Shown here: piece after piece, positions 22,442-50,636 of the stretch
Layout of the letters: each line of letters starts with the position of its first letter
Position numbering within the stretch: the first letter of the stretch is position 1
Origin: a bacterium
Lineage (GTDB): Bacteria; Electryoneota; Electryoneia; Electryoneales; Electryoneaceae
Assembly: GCA_043801585.1 (NCBI GenBank)
Contig: JAZDLX010000074.1
Coordinates: forward strand, 1-52,068
Direction: 5' to 3'
DNA: 52,068 bases
Position numbers and translations under genes: made by a program
The notes under the pieces: generated by a model
Told to the model about the DNA's origin: nothing
Database searches by the model: none
The model's input: only the letters and a program-made list of their open reading frames with translations

Positions 22442-23848
22442 TTGGCTCAACCACCCGCCGGCTACCTCCTGCTCGAGGACGGCGCCCGTTTTGACGGCGA
22501 GGCGCTGCACGGGGAGGCTCCTTCCCTCGGCGAAGCGGTATTCAACACCTCGCACACCGGTTACCAGGAAATCCTCACCGATCCGAGCTACCACCGCCAG
22601 ATCATAACCTTCACCGCACCGCACATCGGCAACGTGGGAATCAACGCGCAGGATGTGGAATCGGAGAAGGTGCACGCTGCGGGGGCGGTCGTCCGTTCCC
22701 TGGCACCACGGCCGAGCAACTGGCGGTCGGAGGGCGGTCTCGCCGACTGGCTCTCCGCCCACGGCCGCTGCCTGCTCTCGGGTGCGGAGACACGGGCGAT
22801 AACACTCCACCTGCGCGAACACGGCTCCCAGCGCGCTGGAATCTTTCCGTCGTCCACACCCGTTGATGAGGCTCTCGAACAGGTCAAGGGTTTGCCCGAG
22901 ATGGCAGGGACCGATCTCGCGCGGGAGGTCACGACGGAATCCGCATGGACTTATAACGGAGCGGACCTCGACGAACGGTGGCACCCGAAGCTGAAACTCG
23001 GTGAGGGGCTGCGCATTGCGGTAGTCGATTTCGGGGTGAAACGAAACATTCTCCGCGAACTCGCACGGCGCAGGGCGACGGTCGAGATTCTTCCCGCGAT
23101 GACCTCGGCGGAGGATATCCTGAAAAGAGGTTGCCACGGCGTGCTGCTTTCCAACGGTCCGGGAGATCCGGCGGCGGTGACCTATGGCATCGAGACAACG
23201 CGGGCGCTGCTCGGCAAACTGCCGCTGTTCGGCATCTGCCTCGGGCACCAGATCCTCTCCCTCGCGGCGGGACTCGATACCTTCAAGCTCCGTTTCGGGC
23301 ACCGTGGAGCGAACCACCCGGTGCGGCGGGAGGAAGACAAAACGGTCGAGATCACCAGCCAAAATCACGGGTTTGCGGTAGTAGCGGAAACCCGGCTGAC
23401 GGAACAACTGGGCCACACGTCAGAAACCCGGCTGACGGGACAGCCGGGCCACATGGAAAAGTTGTCATTGCGAGGAACCGCAGCACCGAAGGTACAAGCT
23501 CGCATGTCCGAAGGACGTGCAATCCGTCAGCCGACGGATGACGAAGCAATCTCGAACCGACTGGCCAGTCTTCGCGATGCTACGACTTGGCAAGCGGGGA
23601 ACAAGGACAGCGAGATTGCTTCGTCGTCCGCCAGCTGGCGGACTCCTCGCAATGACACATTCGAGACAAACACCGGGCTGTGGGTGATCACGCACATCAA
23701 CCTCAACGACGGAACAGTTGAGGGTCTGGCGCACAGGGAGCTGCCCGCCTTTTCGATCCAGTACCACCCCGAGGCGAGCCCCGGCCCGCATGAGGGGTGG
23801 GTCTATTTCGACAGGTTCATGGAGATGTGCAGGAGGCAGTCATCCTGA
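22442..23848 (+). CDS. carA: Carbamoyl-phosphate synthase small subunit with in-frame repeat-derived insertion
   Basis: GEAVFNT..TGYQE.LTDPSY, SNGPGDP, GICLGHQ, TSQNHGF, QYHPEASPGPH; about 100 residues between NHGFAV and VITHINLND instead of roughly 10. Confidence 0.93.
   Translation: MAQPPAGYLLLEDGARFDGEALHGEAPSLGEAVFNTSHTGYQEILTDPSYHRQIITFTAPHIGNVGINAQDVESEKVHAAGAVVRSLAPRPSNWRSEGGLADWLSAHGRCLLSGAETRAITLHLREHGSQRAGIFPSSTPVDEALEQVKGLPEMAGTDLAREVTTESAWTYNGADLDERWHPKLKLGEGLRIAVVDFGVKRNILRELARRRATVEILPAMTSAEDILKRGCHGVLLSNGPGDPAAVTYGIETTRALLGKLPLFGICLGHQILSLAAGLDTFKLRFGHRGANHPVRREEDKTVEITSQNHGFAVVAETRLTEQLGHTSETRLTGQPGHMEKLSLRGTAAPKVQARMSEGRAIRQPTDDEAISNRLASLRDATTWQAGNKDSEIASSSASWRTPRNDTFETNTGLWVITHINLNDGTVEGLAHRELPAFSIQYHPEASPGPHEGWVYFDRFMEMCRRQSS
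23387..23452 (+). repeat. Two tandem GAAACCCGG-hairpin-GGGCCAC repeats (36-nt period) inside carA
   Basis: gaaacccggctgacggaacaactgggccac (23387) and gaaacccggctgacgggacagccgggccac (23423); encode ETRLTEQLGHTS-ETRLTGQPGH. Confidence 0.85.
23463..23657. repeat. 195-bp nested palindromic element (GTCAT..ATGAC type) inside carA
   Basis: Terminal IR tgtcattgcgagga (23463-76) / tcctcgcaatgaca (23644-57); inner IR gacgaagcaatctcg (23540-54) / cgagattgcttcgtc (23611-25); two short side hairpins. Confidence 0.9.
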
Positions 23849-24515
23849 ATCCGCCACTCGGCGGATGAAGGATCTATGAGTTTGTTTCTTGAAAAAATAC
23901 AACATCAACTCAAAGATCCTTCTGGCTGCGCCGTCAGGATGACTGAAAGGGAAAGTAAAGTTGGGTGACTTTGGTCTGTGCATTGGTAAATTATGAAACC
24001 CGGGACTAAAGTCCCGGGCCACCCTGACAGGATCGGACCACCCGAGTGAGGACGAATTAGAATAAACCCTGTTTGCGAGCAAACAGGGGCACATAGCCGT
24101 CAGGATGACGGGGGGGACTTTAAGGTGAAACCCGGTCCCGAACGGTCGGGATCAAACCAAATGACGATTTTGTAGTCATCCTGAACAAAGTGAAGGATCT
24201 ATGAGTTTGTCTGAGTTCTGGGAAAACTTCAACTCAAAGATCCTTCCTGCTGCGCCGTCAGGATGACTAAAGGGTCAAAGGCATATGAAACCCGGGACTA
24301 AAGTCCCGGGCCACCCTGACAGGATCGGACCACCCGAGTGAGGACGAATTAGAATAAACCCTGTTTGCGAGCAAACAGGGGCACATAGCCGTCAGGATGA
24401 CGGGGGGCGGGGCGGCATCAAGAGAGAAAGCGTATGGGAGAAGTAGGGGTTGAGTTGGATGGTGAGACCCGACTTGACGAGCAAGTCGGGCCACCCTGCC
24501 AGGATCGGGCCACCC
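23838..24515. repeat. Mosaic palindromic repeat cluster between carA and carB
   Basis: Two AGTCATCCTGA..TCAGGATGACT elements (23838-23944, 24174-24268); 124-bp direct repeat (23992-24115 = 24284-24407); several AAACCC-hairpin-GGGCCAC units. Confidence 0.9.
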
Positions 24516-24532
24516 AGTCAAAATGGTGAAGA

Positions 24533-27500
24533 ATGCCACGTCGTGACGACATACAAAGCGTGATGGTGCTCGGGTCGGGCCCGATTGTGATCGGGCAGGC
24601 CTGCGAGTTCGACTACTCCGGGACGCAGGCGGTGCGGGCGCTGCGCGAGGAAGGCATTCGTGTCATCCTCGTCAACAGCAATCCGGCGACGATCATGACC
24701 GATCCCAGCCTCGCCGACGCCACCTACATCGAGGCGCTCGAAGCGGACATGGTCGAGCGGATCATCGCCCGGGAACAGCCTGACGCCATCCTGCCAACGA
24801 TGGGCGGCCAGACCGCGCTGAACCTCGCCCTTAAACTCCACGAACAGGGCGTCCTCGACAAATACGGCGTTCGTCTGATCGGGGCATCCGTGGAGGCCAT
24901 CGAACTCGCTGAGGACCGCGAGAAATTCCACGACGCGATGTTGCGGATCGGGCTCGAGGTGCCTCGGGGAGGATTCGCGAGAACGCTCGAAGAGGCGCTC
25001 GCGGTCGTCGAAATGACCGGCTTTCCCGCGATCATCCGGCCCTCCTTCACACTCGGCGGAGTCGGCGGATCGGTCGTCTACAACCATGAGGAGTTCGAGG
25101 AGCGGGCACGCTGGGGCCTTTCGCGCAGCCCGGTCTCCGAAATTCTGATCGAAGAGGCGCTGACCGGCTGGAAGGAATTCGAGCTCGAGGTGATGCGTGA
25201 CGCCGCCGACCAGGTAGTGATTGTCTGCTCCATCGAGAACATGGACCCGCTCGGTGTGCACACCGGCGACAGCATCACCGTCGCCCCGCAGCAAACCCTG
25301 ACCGACAAGGAATACCAGGTGATGCGTGACGCCGCCTTCGCGGTGATCCGCGAGGTGGGCGTCGAGACCGGTGGCAGCAATATCCAGTTCGGAGTCCATC
25401 CCGGAACGGGGCGGATGGTGATCATCGAAATGAATCCGCGTGTCTCCCGCTCCTCCGCACTCGCCTCCAAGGCCACCGGTTTCCCCATCGCACGGATCGC
25501 GGCGAAGCTCGCCATCGGCTACCGTCTCGACGAGATCGACAACGCCATCACCAAGGTGACTCCCGCCTGTTTCGAGCCGGCGCTGGACTACGTTGTCGTC
25601 AAGATCCCACGGTGGGCCTTCGAAAAATTCCCGACCGTGAACCAGACCCTCGGCAGCCAGATGAAATCGGTCGGCGAGGTGATGGCGATCGGTCGAACCT
25701 TCCCCGAAGCGTTGCAGAAGGCGCTCCGCTCTCTTGAGCAGGACCGTCATGGCCTCGGCGCAGACGGACGGGATGTGATCGCCAGCGACAACGTCGAACC
25801 GCATCTTCTCTCGCAATGGCGAGAAATGGTCCGTGCCAAACTGGCGACCCCCCGAGCCGAAAACATCTTTTACCTGCGCCATGCGCTGAAACTCGGTTTG
25901 CCCGTCGAGGAAATCGCGAAGACAACCGGTATCGACCCGTGGTTCCTCGATCAGATCGCGCGGATCGTCGAAACAGAGAAGCGGATATCCGCCGCCGCAC
26001 CCCGAGGCCACGGCGATTTGACCACCTTGCGCAAGAGTGTCTCCGTCGACCTTCTCCGCCGGGCGAAACGGGACGGTTTTTCCGACGAACAGCTTGCCCA
26101 CCTGCTTCACACCGACAGCGATGCGATCCGTCAACTGCGCCAGGTGCACGAGATTCAACCGGTTCACCTGCCGGTGGACACCTGCGCGGCGGAGTTCGAG
26201 GCGTACACGCCCTATTACTACTCCTCCTACGAGACAGGAGCGGGCGAGGTCCGGCGCGAAGAGAAGAAACCGAGCGTAATCGTCCTCGGCTCCGGACCCA
26301 ACCGTATCGGTCAGGGAATCGAATTCGATTACTGCTGCGTGCACTCCAGCCGCACACTGATCGACGAGGGATACGACGGGGTAATGGTCAACTGCAACCC
26401 GGAGACGGTTTCGACGGACTACGACATCTCCAGCCGCCTCTATTTCGAACCGATCACCCTCGAGGATGTCCTGGCAATCTGCGAGGTGGAAAAACCGGAC
26501 GGAGTGATCGTGCAGTTCGGGGGACAGACCCCGTTGAAAATCGCCGAATCGTTGCAGGAGCACGGCATCACCATTCTGGGAACGCCCCCCTCGAGCATCG
26601 CGGACGCGGAGGACCGCGAAAAATTCGGCGCACTGCTTCGCCGGCTTGGCATCCCCCATCCTGCGTATGGCATCGCAAAACACTTCACCGAAGCTCACGA
26701 CATTGCCCTCAGCGTCGGTTACCCCGTGCTCGTTCGTCCAAGCTTCGTTCTCGGCGGACGTGCGATGGAAATCGTTTACGACAACGATGCGCTGGAGCAC
26801 TACCTGCGTGAGTCGGCGGGCGAGGTTACCCCGGACCATCCAGTACTGATCGACCGTTACCTCGAGGATGCTTTCGAGTTCGACGTGGACGCCGTATCTG
26901 ACGGCAGGGAAACGCTGATCTGCGGTATCATGCAGCACATCGAGGAGGCCGGGATTCACAGCGGCGACTCCGCCTGCGTGCTTCCCCCCTTCGTCCTCTC
27001 GCCGCAACAGCGCGACGAGATGGTGGCGATCACCCGGAAGCTTTCACGTGCATTGAACGTCGTCGGACTAATGAACATTCAGTTCGCCTTCCGTGACGGA
27101 GAGCTGTTCGTCCTCGAGGTGAACCCCCGGGCGAGCCGGACGATTCCCTTTGTCAGCAAAGCCACGGGTGTCAACTGGGCGGAGGTGGCAACACGGTGCA
27201 TTGTCGGGAGAAGCCTCGCCGAGCAGAAGATGCGAGAAAACCTCGATCCCGGTCGATACGCGGTCAAGGAGGTGGTATTCCCCTTCAACCGCTTCGAGGG
27301 GGTGCGGGTCTTTCTGGGGCCGGAGATGCGTTCGACGGGCGAGGTGATGGGAATCGCGTCGACCTTCAGCGAAGCCTACTCAAAAGCGTTGTACGCGGCG
27401 GGCACCTACCTCCCGGAACCGGGAACGGGAAAGGTCTTCCTCTCGGTCAACGACCGTGACAAGCCACGTGTCCTCGAGATCGCCCGCCGTCTTCATGAAA

Positions 27501-27817
27501 TGGGTTTCGCCATCGTCGCCACCCGTGGCACGGCGTCCTACCTCGAGGAGAATGAGATTCCGGCAGGACACCTGTTCAAAGTTCACGAGGGGAGACCGAC
27601 GGTTGTTGACCTGATGAAGAACGGCGAGATCAGCCTGTTGATCAACACGCCTCTTGGCAAAGAGTCCCATTACGACGAGCGGATCGTCGGGGAGACGGCG
27701 TATCGAATGGGGATTCCCCTGATCACTACCCTGTCAGCGGCAAACGCTGCGCTGGGGGCGATTGAAGCGATCGGGAAACGTCCTCTTCAGCCGATCCGTC
27801 TGCAAAGCATGGACTGA
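24533..27817 (+). CDS. carB: Carbamoyl-phosphate synthase large subunit
   Basis: [17 protein letters not shown], two ATP-grasp halves ([19 protein letters not shown]), C-terminal MGS-like domain; 1094 aa. Confidence 0.98.
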
Positions 27818-33257: not shown

Positions 33258-33283
33258 TTCGGTTCGGAAACACTTGACAGCTT

Positions 33284-33351
33284 CCCGGCTGGCGGGGCAG
33301 CCGGGCCACCCGTCTACTTGAAACCCGGCTATCAAGCTGGCCGGGCCACCC
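33284..33351 (+). repeat. Two CCCGG-hairpin-CCGGGCCACCC repeats between convergent genes
   Basis: cccggctggcggggcagccgggccaccc and tgaaacccggctatcaagctggccgggccaccc, followed by a T tract; may act as terminator. Confidence 0.8.
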
Positions 33352-49677: not shown

Positions 49678-49786
49678 CCAGCCGCATCCTCCTCTTGTGG
49701 AATCTGCCGTAAGTTAGCTTTTCAGGGGACTTATCGCACGATGGAAGGGGGATTGGGGAAAATTGGGATAGATCAGCATGACACTA

Positions 49787-50627
49787 TGAAACCCGGGTGG
49801 TCAAGCCACCCGGGCCACCCGGCTTTTTGTCATTCCCGCGGGCTGTTGAGCGGGAATCCATGTTGACGTTGCAGTTATGGTCGTTGTTGTAGTTGACGTA
49901 AATCTGGGACAGTCCCTGAACTGCCTATAGGGCCAGTCCCGATTTACGCCATTTATGTGTGTGGCCCGGGATGTGATCCGCAGGATCATTTCCCGGGTTT
50001 CATGACTTTGCTATGTAGAACGTGTCCTTTCTCTGAGTCCCGGGTAATCCGCCGACTGGCGGACAACCCGGGCCACCCCTCTGATCCACCATCATTCCAG
50101 CACTACCTGTCATTCCCGCAAAGGCTGGAATCCATGTTGTCGTTGTTATTTTCGTTGTCATTGTCGTCATCATTATAGGTGACGTTGGCGTAAATCTGGG
50201 ACAGTCCCTGAACTGCCTATAAGGCCAGTCCCGATTTACGCCATTCATGTGTGTGGCCCGGGATGTGATCCGCAGGATCATTTCCCGGGTTTCATGATTT
50301 TACCATCTTGACTTTCCACTTCTCAGAAACCCAGGAAATGCCGATAAACCCCCAGCACAACCCAAGCCACCCTACGGCGAAGGGAGATTCGTGTTCCGTC
50401 GGATCGTGAATGCCGTCATTTCGGCATGGAGATCCGACGGAATCAGGTGTCGGGTCTCCGTTCCGACCATTCAGGACTAACGACCTGACACAACTGGAAA
50501 AGGGGAATTGGGGAAAATTGAGGTGTACGTAAATCGGGACAGTCCCGGAACAGCATTTAGGGACAGTCCCGATTTACGTACAGTGTGGCCAAATGAAACC
50601 CGGGTGGACAAGCCACCCGGGCCACCC
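49787..50627. repeat. Mosaic palindromic repeat cluster
   Basis: 109-bp direct repeat (49897-50005 vs 50189-50297, 2 mismatches); GGGACAGTCCC doublets (third at ~50528-50578); GTCATTCCCGC..GGAATCC units; near-identical TGAAACCCGGGTGG.CAAGCCACCCGGGCCACCC at both ends (49787, 50594). Confidence 0.9.
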
Positions 50628-50636
50628 TTCGCTCTT

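Follow-up and report, generated by a model that had tools for sequence, protein, structure and literature searches.

An in-frame mosaic of intergenic palindromic repeats in carA, with different inserts at the same site in related lineages

How does a conserved enzyme come to carry a hundred residues in a loop that usually holds nine? The question is raised by the carA gene (22442..23848, plus strand), which encodes the 468-residue small subunit of carbamoyl-phosphate synthase in the Electryoneaceae assembly GCA_043801585.1. By "the window" we mean the whole stretch analysed, the 52,068 nucleotides of contig JAZDLX010000074.1, and all positions refer to it unless a contig label is given. An earlier note on this DNA had described an in-frame loop of about 100 residues between the segments NHGFAV and VITHINLND, and its coordinates proved exact: the loop spans 23381..23683 on the plus strand (residues 314-414), which is 303 nt or 101 codons inside an open reading frame of 468 codons that contains no stop. 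The repeat-derived part, here called the insert, occupies 23387-23656 and comprises 270 nt, or 90 codons, open and in frame.

The gene is a genuine carA. Its product scores 418.6 bits against TIGR01368, for which the cut-off is 307, and it combines CPSase_sm_chain and GATase domains, a Cys-His-Glu triad and a neighbouring carB, which lies downstream, intact, at 24533..27817 on the plus strand (1094 aa). The catalytic residues on either side of the insert are in place, as had been claimed: the codon of Cys266, in the motif GICLG, is at 23237..23239 and aligns with E. coli Cys269, and His442-Pro-Glu444, verified on the sequence and likewise aligned with E. coli CarA, is at 23765..23773 (both plus strand). 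Cys266, His442 and Glu444 are invariant across an alignment of 119 homologues. A comparison of the flanks of the insert with those of a genome from the same genus (G001; the genome under study is G000) gave a dN/dS of 0.11 at a dS of 0.80 over 360 codons, and the flanks are thus under purifying selection. Only one PF00988 match, carA itself, was found in the assembly, which is 92% complete and has three genes of carbamoyltransferase families.

The length of the loop is exceptional among homologues. In a survey of 144 homologous proteins, 4 of which did not parse, the loop has 9 residues in 118 of the remaining 140, 10 residues in 8 and 8 in one, in agreement with the expectation of about 10. 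The long loops comprise five of 37-38 residues, five of 42, two of 104, and the 101 residues of the window. On the alignment with E. coli CarA the insert falls between approximately residues 319 and 327, directly after the NHGF segment, which we take to help bind glutamine. Loops of 33-51 residues occur at the same CarA site in unrelated lineages (L049, L050, L088, L095 and L124; P0099, P0108, P0113, P0116 and P0119), and the site therefore tolerates length in general. Several of these unrelated loops have in common a P-[AE]-A...D-[ST]-x-[FH]-G pattern, and the 37-38-residue loops of P0099 and P0113 had no match in G000 at E<0.1.

The insert is a mosaic made up of REP-type repeats that also occur between the genes of this genome. 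It opens with two tandem units of 30 nt on the minus strand, each with a GTGG tag and a hairpin. Unit A1 (23387..23416), which encodes ETRLTEQLGH, is a decayed copy with a hairpin of -7.8 kcal/mol, whereas unit A2 (23423..23452), encoding ETRLTGQPGH, is nearly intact at -16.7 kcal/mol. Allowing 4 mismatches, A1 has 8 other copies in the genome, all intergenic, and A2 has 22, of which 21 are intergenic. Read on the minus strand of 23423-23452, element A shows GTGG and then an 8-bp stem, in accordance with the definition of such REPs as hairpins of 20-40 nt whose 5' foot bears GT[AG]G. A linker of about 8-10 nt follows (23455..23462, plus strand) and ends in GAAAAG, which matches the 3' end of another repeat, H, and may be a remnant of it.

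The remainder is element B, a TGTC-tagged dimer of the CGTC superfamily whose arms lie head-to-head with the tags outside. The left arm (23463..23554, plus strand) is 87% identical over 99 nt to an intergenic sequence at C26:6932-7030, and its core has 10 other copies, all intergenic. Nested within it, at about 23476-23512 (plus strand), is sub-repeat J, with 3 other copies, again all intergenic. The spacer between the arms (23555..23610, plus strand) contains a further hairpin and sub-repeat I, whose one other copy is intergenic (C209:6857-6898, 88% identity over 42 nt). The right arm (23611..23657, minus strand) pairs with the left and has 11 other copies within 7 mismatches, none of them inside a gene. 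Both arms show TGTC-ATTGC...GCAAT-CTC, and the tag, the stem starting with AT, the short tail and the head-to-head arrangement are all present; however, the arms are 92 and 47 nt long with nested hairpins in place of an 8-9-bp stem with a 4-5-nt loop, so that B is an expanded variant with loops much longer than those of the CGTC REPs described by Di Nocera et al. (2013, PMC3733652). The loop closes with a non-repeat tail, TFETNTGLW (23657..23683, plus strand), a predicted strand that has no other copy in the genome; it begins in the same way as the tail of the G001 loop, TFEMESGPW. The earlier note had derived the insert from two palindromic repeat families. The two tandem units and the 195-nt nested palindrome (23463-23657) stand, but the count of families was too low, because the palindrome itself holds sub-repeats J and I.

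For each block of the insert, copies exist between genes elsewhere in the genome. Repeat-rich reads could have been joined into carA by mistake: the assembly is a draft of 225 contigs, the exact insert is known from this assembly alone, the exact protein is encoded on this contig only, and the protein forms a singleton cluster. Such a chimera is nevertheless highly improbable. No block is identical to any other copy (identities of 87-97%, with private substitutions), the reading frame is preserved through 90 codons, carA has no second copy, and inserts are found at the same site in related lineages from other sources (see below).

Outside carA these repeats are almost confined to the spaces between genes. 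The 3.3-Mb genome holds about 500 intergenic repeat units of ten families. The division into coding and intergenic DNA relies on our own dicodon model, which called 2609 genes and is not a standard annotation. By this measure 135 A units and 54 B units, 189 together, are intergenic, the A units being 135 of 138 hairpin-filtered matches. The count of coding copies against intergenic ones is correspondingly lopsided: the 2.25 Mb of coding interiors hold 6 A or B units in 3 genes, and carA has 4 of them. The other two are A units, one in an MrfA-like helicase gene on contig C144 and one in a gene on C188 that reads as kinase-like by its motifs, though Pfam gave no family. A BLAST search of coding interiors with 615 intergenic copies from the ten families, in which matches below E 1e-4 were accepted, returned the same three genes and a J-like piece (G000:C123:18575-18625). 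The latter lies close to the 3' terminus of a predicted gene at the edge of a contig; it is uncertain and was left out of the count, as was an A match in a doubtful 43-codon frame on C146. Weaker matches were inspected for five genes, and none was accepted beyond the C188 gene; short-motif matches inside genes were mostly chance and were dropped after the hairpin filter and BLAST. Repeat H gave six pattern matches, two of them partial and within 20 nt of tRNA-Pro genes (G000:C128:19987 and C152:13619), which leaves four convincing copies.

The intergenic repeats also lie close to one another. Another family is found within 150 nt of 60 of the 135 A units (null mean 16, maximum 27) and of 41 of the 54 B units (null mean 8, maximum 15; 200 shuffles each). 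The null assumes even placement over intergenic DNA, and the excess may thus reflect either targeting of repeats by repeats or the shared tolerance of certain spacers. The spacer between carA and carB (23849..24532) holds such a cluster, composed of GTCATCCTGA dimers, A-type units and an exact 124-nt duplication with its copies 292 nt apart; it is the ordinary intergenic form of the mosaic seen in the insert. In G001 the same spacer has a different repeat cluster and an assembly gap. More intergenic clusters occur in the window at 49780-50630 and 33270-33351, including a 292-nt-spaced duplication with GGGACAGTCCC units. Of 168 frames of 90 codons in intergenic repeat clusters, only 4 are open. 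The filter that the reading frame imposes at each step is weaker than this fraction implies, because single units are often open alone: the 5' parts of 50 of the 54 B units are open in the insert's frame, and 73-121 of the 135 A units are open, depending on the frame.

The protein model places the insert outside the enzyme proper. In the AlphaFold model of the carA product 331 residues have a pLDDT of 90 or more, and the model matches E. coli CarA (1cs0_B) with a target TM-score of 0.92, so that the CarA fold is modelled as intact with the insert outside it. Residues 318-365 and 375-403 fall below a pLDDT of 50, and the insert has one weak helix. These values suggest that the insert is disordered; they do no more than suggest it, because low pLDDT is expected for a stretch that has no aligned homologues. 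With intergenic copies of every block, a single carA and this position in the model, the proposal that intergenic selfish repeats colonised a loop of a housekeeping enzyme is well supported; the new protein sequence that the earlier note drew from it is a prediction.

Related genomes show that the window is not alone. Among CarA genes from 20 other genomes of the phylum, the loop has 9 residues in 18, 10 in one and 42 in G001. The four closest CarA lineages, namely the window, G001 and two lineages known as proteins only (P0004 and P0005), have loops of 101, 42, 42 and 104 residues, respectively, and all four are different. In a tree calculated with the loop removed (37 of 38 rows; P0036 did not parse and was left out) they form one clade (100/99), with P0005 outside, then P0003, then P0001 with P0004, and the sister pair P0007/P0010, placed at 81/94, has a 9-residue loop. 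A search with the N-terminal 313 residues, which like all protein searches favours intact genes, also put the four lineages on top (70-100% identity), and none of the next 116 matches (69% or less) belongs to the clade, as judged for the 37 rows in the tree. Alignment with the closest relatives thus revealed different inserts at the same site in three related lineages and the usual 9 residues in the sisters. A metagenome scan returned 80 loci, none of them from the clade, and P0002 was set aside as a duplicated GATase fragment, which is no insert-bearing relative. The carA of another genome (G003; L013:202-2622) lies inside an open frame of 807 codons, of which about 435 upstream codons have no Pfam match; this is possibly just an open antisense or upstream frame.

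The G001 insert uses the same junction as that of the window, after the Ala codon and before ACATTCGAG, and is a different palindrome. It is 74 nt long, contains the TIRYT-type motif GGGGWSAS, and its terminal AAAAGGGGACACTTT is common to an intergenic TIR family of G001. A search of 1.59 Mb of G001 yielded 9 TIR elements, and 3 of them share its 15 terminal nucleotides. Locus L165 is flanked by GGGGACAC TIRs. The inner arms have no other exact copy in 79 genomes, matching only each other, and the G001 loop peptide had no match in G000 at E<0.1. At E<0.1, all 6 G000 matches of the 42-residue P0004 peptide and 36 of the 37 of the P0005 peptide are intergenic, and they include A units, a B arm and family H. 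Both loops open with the H peptide and close with a B arm. These peptide matches indicate that the two loops are probably repeat-derived. On contig C26 of G000 an H+B composite lies between genes, in which H immediately precedes the sequence that matches the window's left arm; at this position the window retains just GAAAAG.

Could the structured insert be kept for a function, either as an mRNA hairpin that tunes the expression or stability of carA-carB or as a peptide that binds a partner? The claim that the palindrome at 23463-23657 is strongly structured is borne out by its predicted fold (-109.1 kcal/mol, z = -11, with none of 200 shuffles as good). Some insert is retained in all four lineages, the 42-residue loop of G001 being identical in four records (NCBI, Logan, JGI) and the 104-residue loop of P0005 in ENA and JGI records that possibly derive from one sample. 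Yet across the four loops no sequence is conserved except scattered repeat words, and the A1 hairpin has decayed. The promoter and terminator scan placed no site in the insert. In an Rfam search of 23200-24600 at E<=1, five weak matches below the gathering score appeared, none inside the insert. No family of NCBIfam (two frames) or Pfam (one frame) matched the insert, although these libraries may lack RPE models. We therefore regard selection for such a function as quite unlikely. Least plausible of all is the removal of the insert, either after transcription or translation in the manner of an intron or intein, or by reversible excision from the DNA. The ends of the 195-nt block do pair perfectly, as in elements cut at the feet of a hairpin, but Rfam gave no intron match on the insert, the Pfam and NCBIfam searches gave no intein family there, and the frame is preserved in all four inserts, although an element that is removed would have no need to preserve it.

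A more serious alternative, though still an unlikely one, is that each lineage received a ready-made composite in a single step at a permissive loop or preferred target, with no accretion of repeat upon repeat. The intergenic composite on C26 means that composites could move as units, and the inserts of G000 and G001 have no clear internal sequence in common while using the same junction. Against this, no intergenic locus in the genome covers the whole 270 nt, the best being the 99 nt at 87% on C26; A1 has decayed while A2 is nearly intact; the first and last blocks are common to P0004 and P0005; and all four lineages of the clade are filled, yet the repeats are in almost no other gene.

The few other genes with such inserts display the same seed-and-accrete pattern as carA. 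In a census of indels between orthologs, the proteins of G000 were set against 81 pieces of G001, roughly half of that genome. The 956 pairs obtained had 35 internal indels of at least 7 residues, and those with repeat motifs fell in only two genes, carA and the C188 gene (G000:C188:725-1450; L188/L254). Among 79 genomes the latter turned up in G000 and G001 alone. It has one antisense A unit in G000, and at the same place the G001 loop is 63 residues longer, with a TIR-type hairpin, an A-type unit and GTCATCCTGA units. The second case is the linker of the MrfA-like helicase/RNase H protein (G000:C144:2881-2911), where an A unit sits in frame in G000 as well as in G001. In two genomes of genus g11 the linkers have a reversed A-type start in common and differ in what comes after it, a GTCATTCTGA dimer in G015 and another perfect hairpin in G011. 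No such units were seen in the linkers of most of the other 12 genomes of the family, which measure 77-100 residues on the same scale; that of G014 (L151) has a GGGGACAC hairpin. The linker loci compared were L146, L158, L159 and L151.

Taken together, we think it probable that a founder repeat entered a tolerant, predicted surface loop of CarA and that units were then gained and lost as in REP clusters, with only open frames kept. The loop is likely a tolerated landing site where selfish repeats accumulate and turn over. In the simplest history, one founder would have entered in frame in the ancestor of the clade and would later have been overwritten. The sequences point to an H unit with a B arm as the likely founder, because the two most distant lineages having it, P0004 and P0005, share both. 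The existing hairpin would then have drawn in further units, probably through enzymes that cut hairpins in single strands (RAYT or TIRYT Y1 transposases, or Ssn-like GIY-YIG nucleases), the cuts then being repaired with other copies as the template. Selection on carA would have removed frameshifts and stops without acting on the peptide, which would be translated as a mostly disordered loop of no function.

Candidate enzymes of both kinds are encoded in the genome. There are 13 Y1_Tnp loci of RAYT/TIRYT type (L032-L044), and most have a REP or TIR family of their own on both sides. Six of the 13 have A-type units no more than about 1 kb away, and the A2 subtype of carA occurs three times around the RAYT-type gene on C208; other loci are flanked by long inverted repeats, which in one case carry the TIRYT motif GGGGACAC. 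The genome also has three small GIY-YIG genes. One of them, the 98-aa gene on C15, lies between TGTCATTGC...GCAATCTCC dimers, which have this frame in common with the B element of carA and differ in the loop, and are thus a related, non-identical B subtype. Adjacency suggests that these transposases and the C15 nuclease are linked to the repeats. A small GIY-YIG gene at G000:C174:22544-22818 lies immediately downstream of tRNA-Asn, with the 3' end of the tRNA repeated beyond it, and resembles an integrated mini-element.

A stronger version of this explanation, for which we consider the case evenly balanced, is that the loop is a self-feeding landing pad: an in-frame hairpin, once fixed, would be targeted by three unrelated kinds of selfish repeat, RAYT REPs, TIRYT TIRs and Ssn-type CGTC repeats, which would replace one another within the span of a genus. 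If so, a core enzyme keeps gaining and losing 30-95 residues of new protein sequence, and the targeting of repeats by repeats is directly testable in three natural replicates, namely carA in its clade, the kinase-like gene and the linker of the MrfA-like protein.

In-frame palindromes are usually seen as single events. At carA, a single codon position of a conserved enzyme would have seen different repeat families arrive and displace one another several times across related species, with the reading frame as a built-in filter. The flanks are fixed, and the junctions of REP insertion, a process still poorly understood, can be read against them. The locus also offers a natural experiment on the amount of random sequence that a core enzyme can accept beside its substrate-binding segment.

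The carA insert is no new kind of system, and in-frame REPs are already in print. In the account of Di Nocera et al. (PMC3733652), GTAG and CGTC REPs are tetranucleotide-tagged hairpins, including GTGG and TGTC variants, that form head-to-head dimers and are mostly intergenic, with some in frame; in-frame clusters encode 43-82 residues in Thauera and R. conorii, and recB of two Xanthomonas species has different REPs at about the same site. The carA elements conform to this description, A being GTGG-tagged and B a TGTC-tagged head-to-head dimer. They differ from the cases described there in that 90 codons, two superfamilies and nested sub-repeats are combined in one loop, and in that four lineages have four different composites. 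A search for carA in the main text of that paper, and for carA and carbamoyl in four of its supplementary files, found neither, although ORFs listed by number in tables could hide them. A literature search, with a coverage that excluded most subscription papers, found no report of repeat inserts in carA.

The comparison with Rickettsia palindromic elements made in the earlier note was correct in kind and not in detail. As cited in PMC10969869 and PMC3733652, Ogata et al. (2000, 2002) described in-frame selfish palindromes inside housekeeping proteins that encode a conserved peptide in many genes, and nearly half of the RPEs are in ORFs (PMC10969869, PMC3184786). The insert is likewise palindromic selfish DNA in frame within a housekeeping gene, and its B element, with a TGTC tag, belongs to the CGTC superfamily, to which RPE-4 and RPE-6 have been assigned (PMC3733652). 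Unlike RPEs, the repeats here are nearly always intergenic, about 3% of the A and B units being coding; these are concentrated in one loop, and there is no conserved peptide and no NCBIfam match.

The putative mobilising systems offer further parallels. Y1 transposase genes have been described with flanking GT[AG]G-tagged hairpins or GGGG[AT][CG]A[CG] TIRs (PMC6006769, PMC3733652), TIRs with GGGGWSAS surround TIRYT genes (PMC3733652), and tnpA-REP genes of subclass 2.4 have in-frame REP insertions within themselves (PMC6006769). The Y1 genes of G000 are similarly flanked, whereas the host of the insertions is here a metabolic enzyme, and units of RAYT, CGTC and probably TIRYT type occupy one site across the clade. 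Ssn nucleases cleave SRM/NTS hairpins in single-stranded DNA, and moving them is not among the activities shown in PMC11893778. The C15 gene, bracketed by GTCATT-tagged hairpin dimers, resembles these systems, but its flanks are of a B subtype different from that of carA. What is new is the probable repeated replacement, by multiple families, at one site: carA differs from known cases in the size of the insert, the mixing of superfamilies, the four fillings of one site in one clade and the two replicate genes.
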